The notes under the pieces were generated by a model. It made no database searches and was not told where the DNA came from. It saw only the letters and a list, made by a program, of their open reading frames with translations. A program made the position numbers and the translations under genes. From positions 5,855,314 through 5,919,313 of the forward strand of contig MU056146.1 in assembly GCA_013239625.1 (NCBI GenBank): DNA of 64,000 bases. The letters are read 5' to 3'. This DNA comes from Lama guanicoe. Taxonomy: Eukaryota. Positions 1,185 to 57,214 of the stretch are shown here, one piece after another. How positions within the stretch are numbered: position 1 is the stretch's first letter; every line of letters begins with the position of its first letter.

Positions 1185-1260
1185 GAAACACAGCAAGATT
1201 CATTCCATCAGAAGCCTTGCTACGCAGCCTACAGAGCCGAATTCAGAAGTGCCAAAACAA
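1185..1260 (+). CDS. FARP1: FARP1 coding exon (~exon 12), end of FERM-adjacent region: (R)KHSKIHSIRSLATQPTEPNSEVPKQ
   Basis: Pyrimidine tract + ccag acceptor, gtcagt donor; 76 nt (phase 2 to 0); matches recalled FARP1 KHSKIHSIRSLASQPTE. Confidence 0.93.
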
Positions 1261-2354: not shown

Positions 2355-2604
2355 TCTCAGCAGAGTGCCAGCCTTACCCTCGGAGAAGGTGCTGAATCCC
2401 CAGGCAGCCAGAGCTGCCAGCCAGGAAAGGAACTGAATGTTTCCGCCCAGGAGAGCGGGCCGCCACGCAGCCCCGCTGCACAGAAGAGCCCGGCAGGGAG
2501 CACGCCGGCCGACGGAGCCGTCAGGGCGACGGTGGAGGAAGAGGAGGAGGTCGTTAAGGACAGGACCCAGCAGAGTAGACCTCAGCCCCCGCAGCCAAGC
2601 ACAG
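2355..2604 (+). CDS. FARP1: FARP1 coding exon (~exon 13), S/P-rich linker: SQQSASLTLGEGAESPG...EEEEEVVKDRTQQSRPQPPQPST(G)
   Basis: Long pyrimidine tract + ccag at 2351-2354; ends ACAG|gtccag; phase 1 joins the exon at 16318 to give PQPSTGSLTGSPHL, as in recalled FARP1. Confidence 0.93.
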
Positions 2605-3581
2605 GTCCAGCATCCAGGGCTGCTAGAGGCAGCAGCGCTTCCATTCCTTTCATTGACTGCAGTGACGTAGACAGTGAATCCGACCTTCTCAGGGAACACG
2701 CATCCCAGTCACGGTCCCAAACAAATGACAACTATGAGGGTGATTTGACCAGTGGTGTTTATCTGCTCTCCCGGGAGGAGAGGCGAATAGAAGCTAGGCA
2801 TTCTAGGGCTTCCCCGCACTCTGTGAAGTCCTCCCGGCCTCCTTCCAGAGAATTCCTTGACGATGATTCGGCAGACATATCCTTTGATGTGAGCGGGAGC
2901 CCCAGACTCCCAAGACATAGCTCTCTGATAGATGAGATGTTCGGGGGCTCAGGCAGCCACAGTCCCTTGGCCACCCCCTTATCTCCCAGCAGCAGAAGCT
3001 CAAGTCCAAATATGCCTTGGGGCCGGACCAGGTCTCAAGGCTATGTTTCCGAAAACGGACATGACCCTAGAGAGAGAAGTGTGGGAGAAGGTACTCTCCT
3101 AAGCCCGGGTCCTCATTACGAAAACTGTTCTCCCGTCTCACAAAGGCCGTATTTAAAGAGTCTTCCCGGTGGATACAATAAGTCAGAGACAGATCCACTC
3201 ATTCTTAGCCGGGGAGCATCAACCCCAGAGGCAGCAGGTAGGCTTGACGGCCCCGGAGAGGGAGGAGTGGTCGGCCCGGCTGGCTTGGAAGGCAGGACGC
3301 TGGCTAATGGGACCCCTCTCGTGGGTCCAGCCTCCAAGACCCTCACTGCGCAGGCAGCCCATACCAGTCGCCTGGGAGACCAGCTGGCCCCCCTGCAGGT
3401 GACCGAGGGCTCCACCAGCAGTGGGACTGAATCCAGCGATTCAGACTCTGAGATGGTGAGCCCTCTGAACCAGCCCCTCGTGTTTGGTAATCCAGCCGTG
3501 CTGGGTTCCCCCTGCGTGGAGAGGAATAAGAAGTCCCTGAGTGGCCTGCGTGTGAAGGAGGAGAGGGAGGAGAATGAGTGA
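2605..3581 (+). CDS. FARP1: Putative alternative terminal extension of FARP1 exon 13: in-frame read-through of 324 extra aa, Ser/Pro/acidic, FRMD7-like C-terminus
   Basis: Frame is open from 2355 to TGA 3579-3581 across a very weak donor; GC/CpG-rich up to the stop, then AT-rich; ends ESSDSDSEMVSP...SLSGLRVKEEREENE. Confidence 0.72.
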
Positions 3582-4649
3582 GGAGACTCGAAGGCATGTC
3601 TTCAAGTGTCGGGAGCCTGGGTTCCTGAGTCCCGGCTTTCGGTGGAGATGATCTGTGCTAGCGACTTGTGCATTTTTAATTGACATCTGTTAGAGGAAGT
3701 TTGGGGCAGGCACACGTTGGATAGGGCATGCCTGACTTCTCAGAGAAACCAAACTTCACAAAGCCTGACAAATTACCAAGAGCTTGTTTATCTTTCTGGT
3801 GGAAGGCTAGAAAGAAATACTTTATTACGAATCTGATCAGTGTGTAGCGTGTCGTATTTATGTGGAAATTTTCTTGTATGTTCAGTTCTGTAGGCAGATC
3901 ACCCTCCCATTTGGTTGAGTCTGGGGACTGAAATAGCACTGAGACCCCAGGAAAAGTGTTGGTTTTACTTTTAACCCCTTCTTGAAAAGGGGGGCTGCTT
4001 TTCTGTGCCTCGTAAAGTGAGAAACTGACAAAATTCAAGGCCAAATGTAAGTTGATTGCTAGTTGAGGTGAAGTGTTTGTGAAATCTTAGTTAAGACTAG
4101 TGAACATTTTAATCAGAAGCACGTGGAATTACTTCTTTGCAGACTTTGTATGAAATGATATAAAAGTCATAGAATCTTCAGGAGCTGTAAGTGACATGAG
4201 ATTGCTGGTTCGGTTTGGGTTTGGTTTGGGTTTGCTTTGGTGGGTCAAATTTGTTGGTTATGTTTGAAGAAGCTGTAACTGGTGAGCAGAACCTCTTGGT
4301 GAAGCACAGACATGCTGTCAGGCGATGGTGCAGGAGGAAGTAGGTACTGTTGTCACCGGGAGGTTGGCAGACTGAATGCTGCCTTTGAATAGTGCACAGC
4401 ACAGAGAAGGGCCGAGTCCCAGTCTCATTGCCTTGGGTTGAGTTTTACGCACATTCTTAATGTTCACTCTCTTGGGAACAGCAGCTTCTCTCAGAAGCTG
4501 ACTTACGGCTGCTTCTCTGTGCAGGAAGAAAGAAAGTGAAAGTAGCAAGAAGTCTGGCTTCTTTTTAAATCTTGACCACCTACACCAGTGCCTTTCACCC
4601 AGCACTCCTGCATTTCAGATGAAGAGCCTGGTTTGGACTTGCTTTGTGT

Positions 4650-4790
4650 CTCAGCCTTAGCTGCACCTTGGAATCACCTAGGAATTTAAAAATTGGCATT
4701 GCCCGAACCCAGACCCTAGAAATTTCGTTCTCATTGAGCTGGGGTGCCTCTTGGGCTCCCCAGATGGCTCTGCTAGGCAGCCAGGGTCAC
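4650..4790. mobile_element. MER5A-like hAT-Charlie remnant
   Basis: cttagctgcaccttggaatcacctagg...ggcagccaggg resembles MER5A. Confidence 0.55.
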
Positions 4791-5374
4791 TCCTCAGCCA
4801 AACATGATTGCCTTCTAGACTCTGGTGGAGTGTAAGGAAAGCGCTGGCTGAAATTCTGGCTTGCTTGCTGAGTAGGAAGAGGGTCACAAATGAAGTGCTT
4901 TTCTTCATGCCTGTTATTTGGTACTTTTTAGTCTTCGGTACTTTTTTAAAAAAAATAAATTGTAGAGTAAAAGTTTTAGATCCTAAGTAACCACAAAATC
5001 CTCGAGCAGAGTTGTAACAACGATACATCTGATGTCTGCCATGCCAGTGGCCTTAGTAAAACCTCATCATGTGGCTTTGTCATGCGGAGGGGCTGATCAT
5101 GGGTAGGAAACGGAGTAGAATTTGGCAGCAGTATTTCACGAACAGAAATATTGACTGACCTTGTGGTTCACAAGTGATTATCTGTCCACATGAATGTCCA
5201 GAGGTTGGTTTTAAAGATTCTGAAAACTTTAATCCATTTTTATACACACTTCTGCTCTGTCTTCCTAATCATTTGATTCAGTGCATGATTGATGAATCAA
5301 ATTGATTATCGGATAGCTTGAAAGATGTTCATTGAAGTAGTCTATTCATGTCTTGCTTTAGAATTACATATTTA

Positions 5375-5530
5375 ACAGTCACAGAATTTGAAAGCCAGAA
5401 GGGACCTTAGAGATCACCTAGGTTAAACCTCATTTTACAGATGAGAAACTTTCTTCCAGTGAAGAAGTCACAGAAGTCATACAGCTGTTGCATGACAGAG
5501 CTAGAGCCAGAAAGCTGGTCTCCGGACTTC
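5375..5530 (-). mobile_element. MIR SINE
   Basis: gggaccttagagatcacctag...cattttacagatgagaaact MIR core. Confidence 0.75.
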
Positions 5531-7807
5531 AGCATTTTACTCTATGTGACGTCTGGATGCAATAGGTCCTTTTAGATTTAATACTTTATTTTTTGAGACT
5601 CTTGTATGCATTAATAATTAAAATCATGTGGCAACTAGGAATCCTGTAGACTTGACTTAGGCAATGACAGTCCTACTAGGCAGGAAGACCGGCTGCTTTT
5701 TTATATTGCGGGGTTTTGCATTATAACACATTTTTGCATATTCTGTTTTGAACTTAGAGAAAGATGTCAATTTGCTGTAGAAAAATTTACTTAAATGGGA
5801 GTGTAGCGCAGTGACACTTGGAATCCTGTGGTTTATTTGTGAAGGTGGTCTGTTGAAATGAGTTTTCTTTTTACTTCTAATCATACAGCAGTCTGATAAT
5901 GAAATACGAATGAGCAAAAGGGTTGAACTTACCCAAAACAAAATGTGAATCATCGCATGTAAACCCCCAAAGCAAAACACGCTCCAGTAATTATTTTGTT
6001 TGGCTTTTTCCCTAAAGAAGTGATTTTTATCTGAAGTGTTTTAAAAGCAGCTGATCAACAGTGGTGTCCCCTGTCCTGCACTGACAAGATTTTCCACTGT
6101 CAGGGTCACTGGTAGAGTTTTTCTCAGGTTGGTTTCATACCAGCCACGTAACTGAATTTCTGCTTCTCAGCCAGCGTTTATGAAAGTGGCAATCCTGGTG
6201 TGGTTAATGGTGCTTAAAAGAAAGGAGGGGTGTGGTTTGTTCAAAAGCCACTTACCCTGAAGTGCTGAGAATACTCACTAATTGCTTCAGGGAGCACTTG
6301 CCGAGCGCTGGTGGGACGGTCAGCCTCCCGCCAGCATTCTTTGGTCCTGGCGGTAGAGCCAGTTGACCGAGGTGGAGAGGTCAGGGAAAGCCACGAGTGT
6401 CCACCATCCCACCTTCTGTGCCCTCTGCTTGTGAGACTCCGGTCCCGAGGTCCTTAACTGGTCGCTGGAATCTCACTGTGTGGCGTAACAAGGGCAGGCA
6501 GATCAGAGAGGGGGTCAGGTATGAGGAATAAGCAGTGGAGATGAGACACCTGTGAATTCTTGCAGATTTCTGAAGGGTTTCCTAAGACCTTCCGCCAGTT
6601 TTTCTAAGACAAGAGCTAGTGTAGGGTCTCCTGCATCAACAGGGAAGCCAAGGCTTCAGATCACGGCTGCTCTCTGAAACAGTGTCTTAGGGGCTTGGAT
6701 AGAAGACCAGCTCTATAGAGAAATAAATCTTCATGCCACTCAGGGCTACTCCAGGGCCTCCTTGCACTAATATCTTTTGTTAGATAGTGTTTCAAAATAT
6801 GTAAATTATAGAACCTTTTGGGTTGATTTTTATTGCTGCTTGTTCAAGGCAATATAAAAATGCAAGAAATTCTCTTAGCGTGAAGAAATGCGTTTAATGA
6901 GTTCCAGAACTTAAAACGGATTGCTCCAGCTCCTTCAGCAGTCATCTGTGTGACCTTGACAACCTTTTATTAGACAGGCATTTAATTAAAGGAAGTCTGT
7001 GGGCCAGATTCTTCCCCACACATGTGGTTCCTAGTTGGAAATTCCTCACAGATTTATTTTCTATGCTGCTGTGGCCTGCACTTAAAATGTGAATTCTTCC
7101 AGTTTTATTCTCGAGAATTTCTTTGAAGATTCGAACCAAGCAATGCTGCTTTAAGAAAAAAAAAAAAAAAAAGCTAGACCCTGCAAAACCAAAATGCAGC
7201 GTGAGCCTCTGGAAATTTCTACCAAGTATATGAAATCGGCCTGTCCTCAGTTGAATAGGAGCTCCATTTGCATCTTAGCTCTGGAATCATTTTGATTGTG
7301 CTGTAAAGCAGTTCCTGAAAAAAAAAAAAAAGGAAACACTGCAAATACTAAGCTGTCGTTTTAAGCTTTGTTAAAACTGTTGTGAATGTGCACAGCTCCC
7401 TTTTTTCCTAACTGTAATCAGTGTTCACATTCAAATGCTTTTAATCAACGTTTTCCACTTAAAATGCTCTTCCATATTTCAACACAGTATGGGTTTGGTG
7501 CAATTGGAATCATTAGTGAGTAACTGAGTTCCAGGTAGGACCAACCTTCAATTAGGAAATTTGGGGGCCCCTTCATCATTAGATTTATTTTGAGTTTATC
7601 TGCTTCTGTCTCGATCACTCTTCTTTACCAGGCCCTTGTTACTAGCCAGAACGTCAGAGCTTTCCAAGTTGTATCCCCAAGGAAGGCTCTTTTTCCCTGG
7701 ATTTTCTCCTTTGTAGTCTGTGAATTTCCCTCCTCTGATAATCAGGAGCTTAGTTCTCTAAGGTTGGCCTTCCTCTAGTTTCCTGGAGATGCGTCTACAG
7801 TTGATTC

Positions 7808-7912
7808 TTTTTTTTTTTTTTTTAATTTTTCTTTAACGGAGGTCCTAGGCCTTGAACCCAGGACCTCATGCATGCTGAGCATGGGCTCTACCACTGAGCT
7901 TTATCCTCCCGC
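7808..7912 (-). mobile_element. tRNA-Ala-like SINE (camelid Vic-1-like)
   Basis: ttgaacccaggacctcatgcatgctgagcatg...ccactgagct with poly-T tail; TSD cagttgattctt/cagctgactctt. Confidence 0.8.
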
Positions 7913-7916
7913 CTTT

Positions 7917-8101
7917 CAGCTGACTCTTGAACAACACAGGTTTGAACAGTGCAGGTCCACTTACACTCAGATTTTTTTCAGTAGTAAATACTGCGCAGTG
8001 CAAGGTTAGTTGAATCTGCAGATGCGGAAGTGCAGTTACACATGGAGGATGGACTATAAACTTCACGGGGACTTTCCTCTGCTCAGAGGGTCAGCGCTGT
8101 A
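7917..8101 (+). mobile_element. Tigger2-family TcMar DNA transposon remnant
   Basis: Begins cagctgactcttgaacaacacaggtttgaac...gggtccactta, like the Tigger2 left end; ends ...ctgta. Confidence 0.7.
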
Positions 8102-9417
8102 TTTTATTGCTGCCAATTTTACAAATCAAACTGCAGAAGAGTCCTTCCATGCGGTCTCTGCAATAGATTAAGTTTCTCTGAACCTGAAAGAGGTGAACAT
8201 TTCAAAACAGCCCGTCGCCGGTAGCTCTTGGATGAGTTTTACATTCAGCCGTGGTAGCCAAGTTCATAAGAACGTGTGGGACGATTGGTCCTAGTGAGTG
8301 AACGTATATAAGAAGGAAGTGATTAAAGAACTTGACTCTGGCGACATTTAAAGAATTTCCTGGCCCTGCTTCTTCCTTGTTAGTTTAATTCCATCTGTTT
8401 CTGTTTAGCTGAACAAAATGTAATACAGGGAAATGGGGTCTCTAGTGCACACCGTGCATACCTCTAACACCAGTTGCTGGTATTTAACTGAAGCCATGAC
8501 TTTTAGATCAAAATAAGGCAACCCCTTAATGTAGCAGCTCCCTTTTTATTAAAAATAACAATAATAATGAAAAGCAAAAAATATACATATCCATGATGAC
8601 TTGACCTAGCGTTGTCTGCTCAAAGATCAAAAGTGGCCTGGTTGCCACCTGTTTGGATACATACTTGAAAAGGGTTACATCGTGTTTCCTGGGGGTAACC
8701 TAGGGATTTTGAATATTTCCCCCCATGAACAAAAGTTGCAAATGCTGATTTGTGCGTCATGTATATGTTTGGGAGGAGGTGGATAGAGTCTTGTTTTTGA
8801 AAAAGGGTCTTCCTTCATAAAATTAACAACACATTAGTCCCAAAAAACAGATGAAATCTACTTCCATCCTGGGGAACTTTTTTTTTTTCTTTTCTAGCAA
8901 AAGCAGTTAAACACCCTGGTAGAAGCTAGGGTTGAATTAGAAAATTCTCCTTTTCCTGAAAGCTTTAGAAGTTGAGTAGACTGTTTGTTCAGGACGGTTT
9001 CAGTGTGGATGGCCTAAGTGATACAGACGTCACAGCTTAGCCTTGGAAACGGCCTCGGGCCGTAGTCCTGGGTTAGCACTTCTGGTAGGAGGCAGCTCAT
9101 TTGCATCTTCATGTAGGTTCTAGATCAGGTTGTTCTGATAGGTCTTGGGCTGGTTTTTATATTTGAAAGTAGGGAGAATTCAATTAACTGTTGACATGGG
9201 ATAGCTGATTTTGTATAGTTGAGAGCCCGGGTGAAAAATCAGCTGCCAGGCAAATGCTGTTAATGCATCATGGAAATGGTATGGAAGAGTCCTGAGCTTG
9301 CTGCTGGGGCCAGAAGCAATGATTTTGGAATATTGAAGAGCAGTTAGAAATCACTGCAAAATGCAACACAAACCAAGGGTACTAAGGAGGATAGGAGGGA
9401 GTGAGGACTGTGTGCAC

Positions 9418-9437
9418 GTGTGTGTGTGTGTGTGTGT
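9418..9437. repeat. (GT)n microsatellite
   Basis: Direct read. Confidence 0.9.
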
Positions 9438-11084
9438 AGAAAGCATCGAACAGTGATTAACTCTACTTTTGAGTAAGAGGTAGCGGTGGCAATGGTACTG
9501 GGAGTTTGGAGGCAGTGATTCTGCTTTATTCTAAATTGGGGTTGTTAACTGACTCTCAAATAGGAAACAGTGGAAGGGTCATTTTGGAGCCTGGTGGTGG
9601 TGCAGTGACGGGCCTGTCATTATTCACAGATGACCTTTCTGGCTCATGAAACTGGGCTGACGATTGCTTTTTCCTGGGCCTCAAAGTTCCTTTGTGAGAA
9701 ATGAAGCATTTGTCACTCTGCCTGCGGTGATTTATGGAAAGACCAAAGACAGGTTTTCCTTAGTCGAGAACACACACCCGCTGCTCTCTGCACACGCGCC
9801 TGAGTGGCCGGTGGATTCAATCCCTCACCTTCTTTCTGCCTGGAAAGTTGCCCTGAAAACCTGACTAACCCACTCGCACAAGCTTGGCCTGTATTATTAA
9901 TCCAGTTCCTTTCTGTTCTCTCTGTGTGTATATTTAATATGTTATTAAAAATTTTCTAATATGTGGAATTAATTTTAAAATAGAAAAGGCTGGGGACTTC
10001 ATTCTCATTTTTGTCATTTGTTGGATAAATTCAAAAGGACATTTTTCTGTTGTGCCATGGTATGCCCTGTTGTGTCAGCATGTACCTATCCAAGAGTAAA
10101 AGCTTTTTTTCAACATTCTGTCTTTATCCTTAAAGCATGGTGTACCTTCTGTTCCCTGCATTGTTGGAGCACTGTCTGATGTCTTTTTTTTTTTTTTAAC
10201 ACAACTGAATACCAGTTTGTACTTTGGAATACCTGTTTCCTCTAGAATACAGTGATCCTGGTCTGTAAACAGCAGGTTTTAACAGGCGGGCATCCTGGGC
10301 GGTCACACTTGGTGACACCATATTTCTCTAAAGGTGGGGAAACAGAAGGTGAACAGAAGACTTCACTTTTCTGATCTCATCTTCTACAAGCCTGCTCTTT
10401 GCACTGTGTGCCTGGAGTGGGTGGTGTTTGGACGCGAGCAGGATCACTGTAGTCTGGGAGAGGGCTCATGGAAACAGAGAGTATCTGTGGTCAGGCTTAC
10501 ATAGGGGGAGCCCGGACGGCCAAGCAGAGGATTGGCTTCTTGTTTGGAATGGGAACATCTATTCAAATGGGACTAGAAAACTGGACGTCGTTTGTAAAAG
10601 GATTTAGCTGTGTCTTCACTTTGTTGGGGAGTGCGGGTAGGTGGAAATAGAAGACCTCATCTAGCATAGCCCCAGCTGGCTTCCTCACCGCCGATAAGCT
10701 GTTTTTCAGTTTGCAGTCTACCCACGATGTAGGCTGTCACAGATACTGTCTGGTTTCATCTTCTCTCCACGGCCTAAGAGTGCAGTATCACAATAAAGCA
10801 TGGATCTCTACCACCAGGAAGGTGGCCGGCTTCTCCGATAACAATGAGCTTGGTGATTCTTTTAAGCATGGAAGGCCAAACTCATGTAACAAGTGTATGC
10901 ACGGTGTTAATATCTCTTGTTAATCTCAACTGAAGAGGCTTTTACTTGTCCTAACAGGTATCTTGCTGTAAAAACTGTCAATTGTAACTGTGCTTTCCCT
11001 CTGATGGCTGAAGCTTTATCCTGAGTACAAGATGGTATTTTTCATTGGTACGAAGCACCATGTTCCCCAATCCAAACAATGCCA

Positions 11085-11134
11085 CTGCTGCCGCCGCCGC
11101 CGCCGCCACCGCCACCACCACCACCACCACCACC
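11085..11134. repeat. Compound trinucleotide repeat (GCC)n-(ACC)n
   Basis: ctgctgccgccgccgccgccgccaccgccaccaccaccaccaccaccacc. Confidence 0.9.
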
Positions 11135-11436
11135 TTCAAACAGAGAAGAATCCTTTATCTTTTCCCCATAAGCAAGAACAAGCTAGTGCATTCCCTGTCA
11201 TTTTTCCATTAGCATTTCTCTTTATATTTTTCGGCAAGTCGCCTTGCTGTTGCTTTTCTGAATTGCTTGATGATGAGTGGTGACACTGATGTTTAGCAGC
11301 TTGTAAAACTCTTCCTAAAGGAACTTGGTCTAAGAAGTACATACCTTACCTGCAACAACCCAAGTTACCAAGAAGACCCCACTGCTATGATGGGTAATCG
11401 TATAATCTGGTTTTTCTTGTGGAAACTTGTCATTTC

Positions 11437-11442
11437 AATAAA
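11437..11442 (+). terminator. Candidate intronic poly(A) signal AATAAA
   Basis: Context ttttcttgtggaaacttgtcatttcAATAAAacagtgacagctcttttcc...tgtggtggg: U-rich upstream, U/GU-rich downstream. Confidence 0.5.
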
Positions 11443-12799
11443 ACAGTGACAGCTCTTTTCCCATATTCCACTGTGGTGGGACCCAGCTTAGTCATCAGAC
11501 TAGAGTGAATCCTGCCTTTTCTGGAGATGACCCGTAGTTAATCTATACAACACTGACCTTTTTTTTTTTTTCCATCCGATAACTGGCTTTCAAATGCAGA
11601 TGGTCTCCAGGGAGAGTTCACGGTTTTCTCTTTCAGAGGGGTATCGTGAACTTTAAAAAGAGCCTTTTAAAAATAAATGAGAACCCGCCTCTGTAATGTA
11701 TTTCCTCCGCGTGCCTTTGCAGCACCTTCTGGGTCCACAGAGATGCGATCTCCAATATTTTAGAACCAAGTAACAGGAGACAGGTCATCACAGATGAGTG
11801 GCATGTAGAAGTTTGCCACATATATAACTTCAGGGGGATACTGAGGAATCCACACAGATACTTTTTTAGTAACTGTACTTTCTAAAATTTTGAAAAGAGG
11901 ACTTGAGAAAGCAGTCAGCATCCTCATTTTCATCAGTATTCTTATTCTCAGATATTTTAATATTTAGCAGATCTCTGGATTACTATTTTTTAAATTGCCC
12001 AATTTTATAGTTCCCTCCTTAACAGGAAAAATAAAACTTATGGAATTAAAAATAGGACGTGCCAAAGAATGCAAAAAAAAAGCGGGGGGAGGCCCAGGTA
12101 AAAACATAGGGCAGGTGCAACGAAGTATTCAAAATGCCATTTTTATTACTTGAAAAATAGATAAAAATTCTCATCTCCCAGACTTGCGTGCGTCTGTTCT
12201 GCCTTTAATATTGTCAGAGGAGGTGGGTGGTTACTAGGCGCCCTGTGCCCAGTCCTAAAAGGGGAAGACATGCATGAGTTTGGCTGGTTGACTCTGTTCC
12301 TGCTGTGGATGTAGCTCTGGTGAAAAGCTGGTTAAGAGATGCTGACGTCTAGGTGAGGCTGCAAATCCAGCTTCCCCTGTGCAGCTGGGAGAGAAGAATT
12401 ATGAAGTTCTCTTACATTCTAAAGATAAAGCAGCTAAGCTAGTTTCTGGGCTGGGTGATAAATGGAAATCCATAAATATGGCAGTGCTAATTTCAAGTTG
12501 CATAGTTGTTTGTGCCATGAGACTGTGTACACTTAAAGGGGTTTTTAAAAGCAATTACCATAAATGCCTCCCTCGAGAGTAGTATGTTTAGTCCGTGGGA
12601 GCGACATAAACTCAGGCCTCTTGATACAGATTGAGGGTGGGGAGGAGGACATGGAGGTTGGCTGGCGGAGGGGGGGGAACTGTCATGACGTTATTTGGAA
12701 GAGGTGAGGAATTTGAGAGTTATTAATCAGAAATACAGCTGAATGCCTAAAAAATGCAGAGCATTTTCTGAAAAGGGGGAAAAAGTTTTTTAAGCCAGC

Positions 12800-12955
12800 A
12801 TTTTGTTTTATTTAGGTTTTGTTTGTTGGTTGGTTTTCTTGGGGGGAGGTGGAAGTAATTAGGTTTATTTATTTATAGAGGAGGTACTGGGGATTGAACC
12901 CAGGACCTCATGCATGCTAAGCATGCACTCTGCCACTTGAGCTATACCCTCCCCC
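12800..12955 (-). mobile_element. tRNA-Ala-like SINE (Vic-1-like)
   Basis: gaggtactggggattgaacccaggacctcatgcatgctaagcatgcactctgccacttgagctataccctcccc; imperfect flanking TSD gggaaaaa..tttttaag. Confidence 0.85.
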
Positions 12956-15900
12956 ACAGGGAAAAAATTTTAAGAATCAAAAGCTTCCAGACTTTTAGGC
13001 TATAACTGATCTTTTTCTAATTCTCTTGAAACTTCTTTCCACCTCTTGCCTTGATATCCTGGTGCTTTCTCAGGAGGTTCCTCCAAATTACTCACCTAGA
13101 GCTCTTCACTGAAATTCCTTTGTGCCCATTTTGACCCCAAGGAGCAAAATGATCAAATTCTGAGGCGTTAGTAAGTTCATTGAGCAGCAGTGAACACCAG
13201 TCACCATTTCTCCTCCTCCAGGGCTGTGCCTTCCAGGCAGGTGACGGACTATGCGGGGTGAACAGGCTTCATAGGGCTGCACAAGTCGAGTGTGGACTCA
13301 TTTCATCCAATGATACACCCGCGTGTGTTTGCTATTTTGCAAAATAGACTACTTCAGTGAAAATTGGTTACAAGTAGTGCTAATAACTGTAACCTTAGCT
13401 ACTGACCATCTTTAAGACATAGCTCTTAACATGTGCCCGAGGGTGAGCCCTGCGTGGACACCAGTTTGTACAGACCTTTGGCATCCACTGGCTCAAAGTC
13501 AAAAGAGAATTGTAATTACTCATCCAGCTGCCAAATTCTACCGATGACCCTTGTCAGCAATATCCCATTGATGGCTGAGTGGTCAGTGAGCTACCTATTT
13601 TTGTCAGGAACCATGTCAGCTGTAAATTTTCAAAGCCTTGGGTAGTTTGTCTTGCAAGGGAGAAAGGGGGCTGTTCTCTGTGGATGCAGCTCAAATTAGT
13701 AAAATCAAACCTGAGTTTTGGACCTTTCCCTTTGTTAGCACTGCTGATAGATTTCTAGAACAAGCTGCTTGGTATTTATTGACTTATTGGTCTTACTGTT
13801 TAAATACACTCATCACCTTGGGTTTCTTAGGCCCCATAAGTAGACGCTAAGCCTGCTCTGGAAACAGGAATAGGCTACCCTGATATGGTCATTTTCCGAG
13901 GTTGTGTGGTTCACGTGTAACGTCAGTGTCACCCATCTTTAGGCTATATGAGTGAGAACGTAGCTGATTCTTACCCAACAACCCAGAACTGTCCCTGACT
14001 CTACCCAGGAGCATGGTTGTCATTGAGTTCACTTTCAGTGTCCCACTTTCTGAGTCGTCTCTCCAATGTGGTCCAGTGGGGATTCTTCTAGATTGCTATC
14101 TTCTTGGCAATGGGTCCTGCCTTCTTGGCAGGTTGGCACCTCTTCTGGATCTGTTAGCGAGTCTTCCCAGCCCATCAAGTCTACAGAACAGAAGTGGCCC
14201 CTGGGAATTCACAAGGGCAACAGCTTTCGACCTTTGGAGGGTAGACATGGTGGTACTTGAACTGGTTCACCCTTACTTCCTCCCTTGCCCTGTGGCAGCT
14301 GGTTTTTTATCTGCTGCTGGATGCTGACCAGGGCCTGACTGGTACGGCTGCCCCACCCCTTTACTCTTCCTTCAAGCTAGCCTTTTTTGTTCTTGGCTCC
14401 AACTCTTTCAGTGATGAGGCCCACGCTTTCTCTGTTCCACATCGCTGAAAATTCAAGGCCCAGCATGTTCTCCCTTACACCTGCCTCACCTGGTCTCACA
14501 CACAGTGTGTGAGCTGAAGGTAAGCCCCCAGATTCTGCCAGATGATGGCGGACAAATACAAAGTGACTCTTGAACAGTGACTCACAAATGCATGAAATGT
14601 TTTGATCTCCAGACTGCCAGAATTTCTCTTTTCTAATTCCTATTTGTAGTGATAACATTTTTTTCTTTTTGTGATTCTTAAAAAAAAAAATAGTGTAGTA
14701 CCTGAATCAATTGCAGTTATAATTGTTGTCACTATTTCTATCTGACAAATTCCAGTTCTCTCAAAATTATTGTATCCAGTTGTGCACTAGTGTCAATAAA
14801 ATTGACATTTGTGAAGCAATTTCTGGCCTTTTTCTCCGGGTTTCACTGGGTCTGATGGTGTGTGGGGTGACTGGGTCTTGTCTAACATCAGGACTTTGTT
14901 TTAATGATGTGTCTGAAAATGCAAGGAATTTAAATGGAGGGTTTTTGTTTCTTTTTTTAACGCGCACTTCTTCAACCTGACTTTTCCTGACATTTCCTAA
15001 TCTTGTTCTTCAGTGGGCAGGATGTCTGCTTTTCGTCGTTTTTGTGGGTGTGGTGGCTTTTCCCCCATGTGTTGGTGACACAGCTAGTGGATCAACCTGG
15101 GACCCGATGGGAGCTGGTGGTGGTCTCTGCGTGGTTCATTCATGCGGGGATGAAGTTCACTATCCAGCATCATCAGCTCCATTCTAGGCTGACCTATCTT
15201 GTAATTTCTGTGGACATGAATGAATCCAGAGAGAGAGGGTAGAGGTCAAGAAAATGAAGGGTATGCCCAGAAAACAGAACTTTTCCTTTCTCAATGAGAT
15301 CCTTGATTGTGTGCGGAGTAGCAACGAGCATGAATCTGTATATAGGAAAACGGAGAAAGCACGCGTGTAGTCTTTCCCGATGACAGTAACTCACCCAACT
15401 GCGGGCTACGTGAACTTTGACCCTAATCCTAGTTTTTGCGAATCTGCATATAAATCCGTTAGGCAGAAACATTTGGTTTAGAAGTAGATTTTGAAACATC
15501 CCATTTAGTTTCAATAAGTTGAGATATCTGTATTTGCAAAAGGCTGTTGGCAAAGAGTTTCAGGTGCACGTCGTCTCGTTTGGCTGACTCATCATGGGTA
15601 ATTATGCATTTTCATATTATTTATTATAGTATCCTTTGCAGAGGAATAATTAATTGCCTTTCATTTTTTGACTCATCAAGGGGAATTGTGATCATGTAAT
15701 GACCTCCAGCTTTGTGTTTTTAAATGATCACCTTTGCCTGTAAATGTGATGCTAGTGTTTCTGTCCCAAACAGTGAGAGAGACATGGAGTGACATCACCA
15801 GGTATAACGAGCTTGCTTCTGTTCTTCGTAGAAGGGGAGGTAGCTGCTTTCCCTTTAGCTGAGCCCCACTGCTCTGAGCCGTAGTCTGTCCTGGGTGTCC

Positions 15901-16317
15901 CAGTCCTTTAGTCTTCTATTAGAATAGCTCTGTTTTCTAGTCCTTTCCCACGTCTCCTTGTGATATAGACACTGTGTCTTTCTCGAGTAATTCTTAGAAG
16001 CTAAGGCAGTAGTTAGGAGGTGATGACTCTATTGGGGGATACACGATGCTTTTAAACTATAGTAATTATTCTCAAAGCAGAGTTCTCCAACTTATCATTA
16101 ATGATGTAACTGTGGCTCCACTGAATGGTATTTTTAATATGAAGGCAGCTGCAACTTAGGACGGAAAAAAAACTAGAAAATCATGAAGTGCATTAAGTAT
16201 GTCATAAGGTGGTCAGGGTTCTTAAAGATTTGAAAAGGTAAAAGTTGTAAGTAGAAACCAGGTCCCAGAAGGAATTACTTTTTTTTTTCTTCTTTAATAC
16301 TTCTCATCCCCAAACAG

Positions 16318-16505
16318 GCTCCCTGACTGGTAGCCCTCACCTTTCAGAGCTGTCCATCAACTCGCAGGGAGGAGCCGCCCCTGCCAACGCCATCCTGTCC
16401 CCCAACCTGAGCCCCGACACCAAGCAGGCATCTCCCTTGGTCAGCCCACTGCTCAACGACCAGGCGGGCCCTCGGACGGACGACGAGGAGGACAGCCGGA
16501 GAAAG
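16318..16505 (+). CDS. FARP1: FARP1 coding exon (~14): GSLTGSPHLSELSINSQGG...DDEEDSRRK
   Basis: T-rich tract + acag acceptor, AAG|gtgtga donor, 188 nt (phase 1 to 0), matches recalled FARP1. Confidence 0.95.
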
Positions 16506-16539
16506 GTGTGAGGATGGGTGTGGGCTTATCTGCTCATCT

Positions 16540-40681: not shown

Positions 40682-40773
40682 ACATGCACAGAGCTAACAC
40701 ATGCACACACACACTTTACACACACACACTTACACACACTTACACATACACACGCACATGCACACACACACAC
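40682..40773. repeat. Imperfect (CA)n tract followed by an L1MC-like tail (40800-40956)
   Basis: Direct read. Confidence 0.8.
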
Positions 40774-41829
40774 AAGCGAGGGCATGTATGAGTGGCGGAA
40801 TCCAAATAAACTCTGGATTGTCCCAGTGTCAGTTCCCTGGCTTTGATGTTGGGCTGTTAGACAAGATGTGAGCATTAGGGGAGGCCGAGTGAAGGGTGCC
40901 TAGAACCCCGTCTACCTGTCTTTGCAACTTTCTGTGAAACCATATTTCAAAAAATAGGTCACAAAAGAAACTCAACAGGGAGACCATGTGATAAGGGTTA
41001 AGATGGACAAATGCAGCGGAAGTACAGGAGGAAGAGGAGGCACCAAGTTCAGGGAAGGGCTAGAGCTGACCCTGAACGTGGGCCGGGGCTTAGGGGGTGT
41101 CTCGGAACGGGGGTCTCGTGTGCGGAGGCTCTGGGCACGAGGGCCTGGCACATTCAAGTGCAGGTGGTTCAGCAGGTGGCCCGGCTGAGTGGTAAGAGGT
41201 GATGATGGAGGGCGGAGGATTTACACGATGAGGGCTCCGTGTGCCCTGAGACCCTGCAGGTTGTCCTGACATGGTGGGAGTTCTTGTCCCAGTCCAAGCA
41301 AGAGGTGACATTCTCAACTGCAATTGATGGAAGTTCTGACAGACGTCAAAGTCAGGGGTCAGGTGTGCAGGCAGAGACCCTGATTCAGACACCACTTCAG
41401 TGGCCGAAACGAGGGCAGTGACCATGGGGTGAAAACAGGAGCAGGCTTGCTGTTTTTAGGAGGTCAAACTGGTAGGACTTGGTGAAGGATTTAAAAAATG
41501 AGGGCATCTGGAGTCGTCTCCAGGTCTTCCTGTCCTGAGGAGCGGGCTGGTGGCGGCACCAGCCTGGGGTTAGTGAGTCACAGGCAGCCGCAGTTGAGCA
41601 GGGGGTGTCGGCTTGGTGTCTGGCCTCACTGCGTTTCCAGCTCTTTATGAGCCTGGGGGTAGAGATGCTGGACTTAGGAGTCCAGACAAGGGAGTCGGCT
41701 GCACGCAGTGAGCCCACTTCTGGGATGTGACGATGGAAGACTTGAGGACCACAGCTGTTGTGAGGGATGAATTCCTTCTTGAATGCTCTGTCACCAAAAT
41801 TCTTACCCCGCATCTGTCTCCACCACCCC

Positions 41830-57132: not shown

Positions 57133-57214
57133 GTGGATGGAGGTGATCCGAAGTGCCACCAGCTCTGCCTCCCGGGCCCACGTGCTGAGTCACAAAGAAT
57201 CTCACGTGTATTGA
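57133..57214 (+). CDS. FARP1: FARP1 last coding exon (~27): WMEVIRSATSSASRAHVLSHKESHVY*
   Basis: ttag acceptor; TGA at 57212-57214; matches the recalled FARP1 C-terminus. Confidence 0.97.

Follow-up and report, generated by a model that had tools for sequence, protein, structure and literature searches.

The question raised by this locus is whether a FARP1 exon that ends in a very weak splice donor, the bases of which can also be read as protein, has two uses, and what is made when the donor is bypassed. The window, i.e. the whole 64,000-nt stretch of Lama guanicoe DNA to which coordinates refer, carries the 3′ part of FARP1 on its + strand. Sixteen FARP1 exons, from position 1185 to a stop near 57214, give a single open frame when spliced, and the order FERM, FA, DH, PH, PH, together with the FARP1 sequence, identifies the gene as the FARP1 orthologue. 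In the animal's own genome the FARP1 coding exons up to the tail described below span ~167 kb. The exon numbers 12 and 13 follow the numbering of human FARP1. The features of the composite exon and its surroundings are the following:

1185..1260, + strand: the exon preceding the composite exon (exon 12), which ends after K-Q in phase 0
2355..2604, + strand: the internal form of the composite exon, 250 nt (exon 13)
2602..2610, + strand: the weak dual-coded donor CAG|GTCCAG, also read as T-G-P-A
2604..3581, + strand: the read-through coding tail, 325 codons plus the stop (3579-3581)
2604..2681, + strand: the first of the conserved tail blocks, GPASRAAxGSSxSIP[FY]IDCSD, with the donor glycine as its first residue
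3235..3243, + strand: an in-frame donor-like site, CAG|GTAGGC, within the tail, at residues that are not conserved
3408..3563, + strand: the last conserved block of the tail, of the type STSSGTESSDSDSE...FGNP...GSLQLDEE
3484..3492, + strand: a further donor-like site in frame, TTG|GTAATC, which coincides with the tail-to-GEF junction of three gene models, two from bats and one from armadillo
3582..16317, + strand: the remainder of the intron, where the short form's 3′ UTR and poly(A) site would lie
16318..16505, + strand: the next exon (SLTGSPH...), the entry to the DH-PH-PH half

Simple repeats, namely (CCG/CCA)n, a GGTTTG-type array and a degenerate (CA)n, lie at 11091-11134, 4207-4240 and 40704-40774, and two similar short interspersed repeat-like copies were noticed by eye in the long FARP1 intron (~7830-7915 and 12870-12960). 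Past the stop, and in another frame, positions 3572-3610 read SEETRRHVFKC, which resembles the SDEDGxxVF[SG]C end seen in birds, lizards, frogs and fish.

The donor at 2604|2605 is joined in phase 1 to the acceptor at 16318, which gives PSTG|SLTG, a join found in the database protein P0127. The intron, 2605-16317, measures 13,713 nt, in agreement with the 13.7 kb given by an earlier reading of this DNA made from its letters (the sequence-only reading). That reading had reported mismatches at +3, +4, +5 and +6, and GTCCAG indeed has 0/4 consensus bases at these positions; the 14 other donors of the window are exactly the hexamers it had listed, each with two to four matches, and the eight FARP1 donors further upstream in the own genome have three or four. 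The dual coding it described is also present, as the donor bases read T-G-P-A in a frame that stays open for 325 codons. Scored with a first frequency table, the donor obtains 0.96 bits vs 4.7-11.5 for all 22 other FARP1 donors; on a second, data-built table, for which 35 donors were taken from FARP1 and FARP2 in the own genome (one FARP2 donor was left out), it obtains 0.1, vs 3.7-10.2 when each of the 35 is left out in turn. It is the lowest of the 23 FARP1 donors on both tables, and 261 of the 723 ordinary GT sites at 4400-16200 score at least as high. By the energy of the U1 duplex it is not the weakest (-5.6 kcal/mol, vs -2.3 for the donor at 1261 and -5.7 for that at 16506). A weak donor before a long intron, typical of composite terminal exons, is found here, with U1 duplex energy as the one measure that disagrees.

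The tail that follows the donor is old. A protein search with the tail alone gave 41 matches, from elephant shark, sturgeon, teleosts, frogs, lizards, birds, a marsupial and placentals, including human; 29 of them have FERM domains without a RhoGEF domain, and 12 combine part of the tail with RhoGEF. Many of the GEF-less database proteins are gene models, which may copy one another. The tail of Lama guanicoe is 72% identical to that of human, 67% to that of mouse and 40% to that of elephant shark, with 67-78% as the range across other mammals. The human protein A0A1B0GV68 (801 aa) is the GEF-less read-through form, and complete short products of 761-801 aa are found on contigs of 4.1-6.6 kb; as the coding exons span ~167 kb, those contigs must be spliced mRNAs. 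The last ~20 residues, kept by birds, frogs, fish and lizards, seem to have been lost in therian mammals. Concerning structure, Pfam has no family on the FARP1 tail, the ESM Atlas gave no match at 0.9 or above, and the AlphaFold model of a bird FARP1 tail has a pLDDT of 44.6 and no fold, which fits disorder without proving it.

The protein itself has been seen in mouse. According to the passages of Li et al. 2021 (PMC8248162) that concern it, mass spectrometry of mouse brain yielded nine non-nested peptides and 244 spectra for an 800-aa Farp1 in 132 of 270 samples, and the product was termed intron retention, for which a loss or a gain of function was considered possible; a review repeats this report. 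In supplement 4 of that paper one peptide spans the unspliced donor and another is formed by the last nine residues of the 800-aa form. Eight of the nine peptides are also contained in a 1278-aa GEF-bearing form, and only the C-terminal peptide is specific to the short one. In orthologues, the donor is accordingly seen both used (the join of P0127) and bypassed (the mouse peptide), as expected of a composite exon. The GEF-less protein, shown in mouse, would by extension be made in Lama guanicoe too. The sequence-only reading had proposed a switch between GEF-bearing and GEF-less FARP1: its GEF-less product is real in mouse brain, but the choice is not binary, given the 1278-aa form. The short isoform itself is already on record, and the splicing mechanism is of a known kind.

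The same layout is found in the paralogue FARP2, which the sequence-only reading had missed. In the own genome its donor, AAG|GTGTTG, has the same exon and phase and is followed by a 9.5-kb intron and a read-through:

L005 5330-6535, minus strand: the read-through tail of FARP2, 304 codons

A search with this tail gave 131 matching proteins; among the 120 matches listed, 76 are GEF-less, from shark to human. The mouse protein D3Z4C0 (795 aa) is the GEF-less read-through form of FARP2, and of the FARP2 products one from mouse is found on 81 contigs and one from a primate cluster on 237. The FARP2 donor scores 4.3 bits, the lowest of the 14 scored in that gene with the first table, and is third lowest on the data-built table, where 2/35 donors are lower. 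The FARP1 and FARP2 tails are matched by HHalign at 97.2% over 244 columns.

A second relative, likewise missed by that reading, is FRMD7, the last exon of which is homologous to the FARP1 tail:

L002 5166-6356, minus strand: the last exon of FRMD7

A phmmer search with the tail only (no FERM domain in the query) against 1.84 billion proteins gave 45 matches, including FRMD7 of coelacanth (E 2.8e-12), an FRMD7-like protein from a shark (7.2e-8) and two further relatives. In HHalign the FARP1 tail and the last exon of FRMD7 are matched at 99.3% (E 1.1e-20) over 277 columns in order, with a score of 151 vs at most 30 in 60 block shuffles; the FRMD7 profile consists of cut rows, from which two rows without the anchor were dropped. 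The first block of the FARP1 tail aligns to DPxxxxxSxSSSSFP of FRMD7, and the last block is the strongest FRMD7 match and is partly matched in FARP2. Taken singly, the own-genome FRMD7 and FARP2 sequences score no more than 22 and 20 bits against the FARP1 profile, though above all of the 454-491 scored shuffles per set, and the profile comparison of the FARP2 tail with the FRMD7 tail gave no direct match (0.2%). In all three genes the intron before the tail exon lies in phase 0 after K-Q (FARP1, FRMD7) or R-Q (FARP2). The FARP1 tail has two traits of a last exon of the FRMD7 type, homology in order and the same upstream intron position and phase.

The FARP1–FRMD7 alignment starts at the donor and pairs the FARP1 glycine with an aspartate of FRMD7, a register that comes from a profile alignment of low-complexity sequence. 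The own FRMD7, which is 99% identical to an alpaca record, has GAT at the donor codon (CGG|ATCCCA at the site), and glycine is found there in 0/109 scored FRMD7 proteins. From these sequences, FRMD7 looks like a fixed short form of its ancestor, in which the G|GT of the donor is now G|AT; by parsimony, rather than from a rooted tree, the ancestor would have had both forms and FRMD7 would have lost the donor and the GEF exons. The last exon of FRMD7 is described as being without homologues in the FRMD7 literature consulted (passages of PMC3633374, PMC3163398 and PMC12811896), and the last of these papers reports, in the part concerned, that frameshifts in this exon cause nystagmus. The export signal of FRMD7, at 344-356, lies before the part held in common with the FARP1 tail. 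Binding of CASK was considered as a function of the tail and rejected, since CASK binds the FERM-FA part of FRMD7 and not its tail; such binding would for this reason not be specific to the short FARP1. Our literature search, mostly of journals outside subscription, found no paper on the FARP1 donor or on the kinship of its tail with FRMD7.

Based on these results, we consider it probable that 2604|2605 is a real, if very weak, FARP1 donor at the start of a conserved 325-codon tail, and likely the border of an ancient composite terminal exon. Where the donor is used, the exon would be joined to the DH-PH-PH exons and give the full GEF protein; where it is bypassed, translation would run to 3581 and give a FERM-FA protein of ~796 aa with a motif-bearing tail that is predicted to be disordered. 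The short mRNA would likely end at an intronic poly(A) site. The donor probably depends on its exonic CAG, whereas the Pro-Ala in the first motif of the tail likely dictates its weak intronic bases. As FARP2 has the layout, it would predate the vertebrate duplications, and FRMD7 would be a permanent version of the short form, having lost the GT as well as the GEF exons. Short FARP1 would act as a membrane scaffold like FRMD7 (and FRM-3A of C. elegans), without a GEF domain of its own.

The residues around the junction bear on why the donor is weak. The donor glycine is kept in 55/55 aligned FARP1 rows, and the residue before it is only T, A, P or S in all 55, each compatible with MAG|G, a behaviour shared by 8/340 variable columns; in FARP2 the residue before the glycine is only Q, P, S or K in 71/71 rows (6/292 such columns). 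The exonic MAG|G thus appears, from the rows of both paralogues, to be kept by selection, in line with the reliance on an exonic CAG that the sequence-only reading had proposed. Nor do orthologues have the strong donor that it had named as evidence against its view: G-P-A forces GTCCNG in 42 of 56 scored FARP1 proteins, 16 of 72 having lacked the anchor and remained unscored, as did 14 of 123 FRMD7 proteins. On the intronic side, testing whether selection keeps +3/+4 weak gave a negative result: FARP1 has no K, N, D or E after the glycine, and these residues are lacking in 84/340 variable FARP1 columns and in 91/292 of FARP2, where the lone row with Glu after Gly comes after a 48-column gap. 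Conservation in FARP1 rises from at most 0.67 before the donor to 0.84-1.0 for most of the 25 residues that follow it, a step that is partly circular because the rows were picked by the motif SIP[FY]ID, which inflates conservation near the donor. Since the donor marks the beginning of a conserved protein motif, and since the proline is retained in 97/109 scored FRMD7 proteins, which have no donor, the weak intronic bases need no cause in splicing; protein coding is enough to explain them, and selection on splicing is compatible with this. A metagenome scan for orthologous DNA gave 599 pattern matches and zero relatives.

It is against this background that the switch of the sequence-only reading must be judged, in which selection on splicing would maintain the weakness of the donor, and the site would serve an actively regulated choice between U1 and polyadenylation. 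This would be compatible with the composite terminal exon, and we give it somewhat less than an even chance. Both paralogues have weak donors with different letters, and the residue after the glycine varies (P, L, Q, V, A, F) and yet does not yield the consensus bases R-A at +3/+4; the absence of K, N, D and E is, however, not unusual among variable columns, the proline of FRMD7 is kept without any donor, and the FARP2 donor is not the lowest on the data-built table. Of the weak donor as a switch, which was the central idea of the sequence-only reading, the apparently selected MAG|G is retained, whereas the weak intronic bases are sufficiently explained by coding.

Hints of regulation come from two published rows, one for FARP2 in cancer and one for FARP1 in Alzheimer's disease, which, by row label and coordinates, would be these introns; read in this way, both would favour the switch. 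In the rows available from the IPAFinder survey, a composite site of FARP2 is up in 6/6 cancers (PMC8559711), and passages of Li et al. (PMC8248162) report that a 3,809-nt piece of the FARP1 intron is up in Alzheimer cortex (logFC 0.49, gene unchanged) and correlates with Braak stage (r 0.34). The human piece, which may have its counterpart at ~2605-6400 of the window, is much shorter than the 13,713-nt intron. FARP1 is absent from the searched supplements of two surveys of intronic polyadenylation, the second of which (PMC8559711) was covered in part, and no U1 data on FARP1 were found in the literature or in the covered parts of these two supplements. The FARP1 splicing variant rs677031 was set aside, as it concerns exon 20 and a different event. 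The intron has seven AATAAA and six ATTAAA hexamers (the first at 4954, 5617 and 6722); they are not enriched, with 7/6 sense vs 16/15 antisense, and single out no site.

An alternative which we consider unlikely is that the tail is mainly an alternative extension of the exon, spliced from later donors into longer GEF proteins, with the GEF-less form a minor product. Bypass of the donor can indeed still yield GEF-bearing FARP1 through later in-frame donors: mouse isoform 2 (NP_001412704.1, 1278 aa, GEF-bearing) is also found on a 5.9-kb ENA contig, the 12 tail matches with RhoGEF are of this kind, and the in-frame site at 3238, 633 nt downstream of the donor, scores 9.0 on the data-built table, far above 2605. 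Use of the 3238 site would insert 211 residues into GEF-bearing FARP1. Against this, the short form's own C-terminal peptide was detected in mouse (PMC8248162, supplement 4). The tail-to-GEF joins vary by species over ~ten places, that at 3487 among them, and most come from automatic models; moreover, the block of the tail with the highest conservation is located past the majority of these joins and ends in a conserved stop region.

An mRNA whose stop codon is followed, over 12 kb further on, by 13 more junctions would be expected to undergo nonsense-mediated decay. This, and the shortness of the contigs, is why the short mRNA would end within the intron, and it makes it quite improbable that the read-through product is due to retention of the 13.7-kb intron in its entirety. 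Retention is the term used in the relevant passages of PMC8248162, and the hexamer counts located no poly(A) site; decay would be expected, yet the protein is present in about half of the samples reported there, and the short-form contigs reach only 4.1-6.6 kb, though contigs can be broken. That the donor is spliced in nearly all transcripts of Lama guanicoe and the open tail is a fading remnant is very improbable, since a neutral intron would not keep a 325-codon frame intact at 67-78% identity to other mammals, even if the therian tail has lost the ~20 residues at its end.

The composite terminal exon, as the preferred explanation, has consequences for work on these genes. FARP1 is treated in studies as one GEF protein, yet brain has a second, ancient product that differs in its C-terminal third, so that knockdown, antibody and variant work on FARP1 may mix two proteins. 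Variants in the "intronic" kilobase after the donor are coding. The orphan C-terminus of FRMD7 gains two relatives and motifs kept since sharks, which may offer a route to the function of the tail, and the three genes together provide a clean example in which one isoform of an ancestral gene seems to have become fixed in a descendant. More speculatively, and with rather more doubt than confidence, FARP1 and FARP2 might each hide an FRMD7-like protein behind a single weak donor with dual coding, and FRMD7 might be a duplicate from which this GT was lost and in which the short form alone was retained; neurons might adjust the use of the donor and with it the balance between Rac GEF and GEF-less scaffold, and short FARP1 might share the partners of FRMD7 and be able to replace it or to compete with full-length FARP1.

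The layout can be compared with several known systems. In C. elegans, according to the parts of PMC7260190 that deal with it, frm-3b is made by splicing inside the last exon of frm-3a, and FRM-3A has no GEF domain; the worm gene is thus like FARP1 in that the choice between GEF-less and GEF-bearing forms is made inside the last exon of the short form. FERM-FA alone rescues receptor clustering there, as stated in passages of PMC7260190 and PMC9632837, the latter of which does not distinguish the frm-3 isoforms in those passages. The likeness is one of layout; the tail searches identified no invertebrate match. The composite terminal exons described in the consulted parts of the IPAFinder survey (PMC8559711) share with FARP1 a weak donor, a long intron and an exon that is extended into it, but the extension in FARP1 is a long conserved coding tail and not a short truncation. 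The 800-aa mouse isoform of Li et al. and the human A0A1B0GV68 are the same read-through at the same donor, with peptides in the orthologous tail; the donor, the deep conservation, FARP2 and FRMD7 are not discussed in the passages of PMC8248162 concerned. The read-through form of FARP2 has the same exon, the same phase, a weak donor and a homologous tail, and differs in its donor letters, its less extreme score and its first motif after the donor, which is not shared; unlike the FARP1 tail, that of FARP2 has no direct match to FRMD7. FRMD7, the nystagmus gene, has like short FARP1 a FERM-FA part and a tail in a single last exon behind the same upstream intron position, and is unlike FARP1 in that it is a gene of its own, reads GAT where FARP1 has the donor and has no GEF exons.
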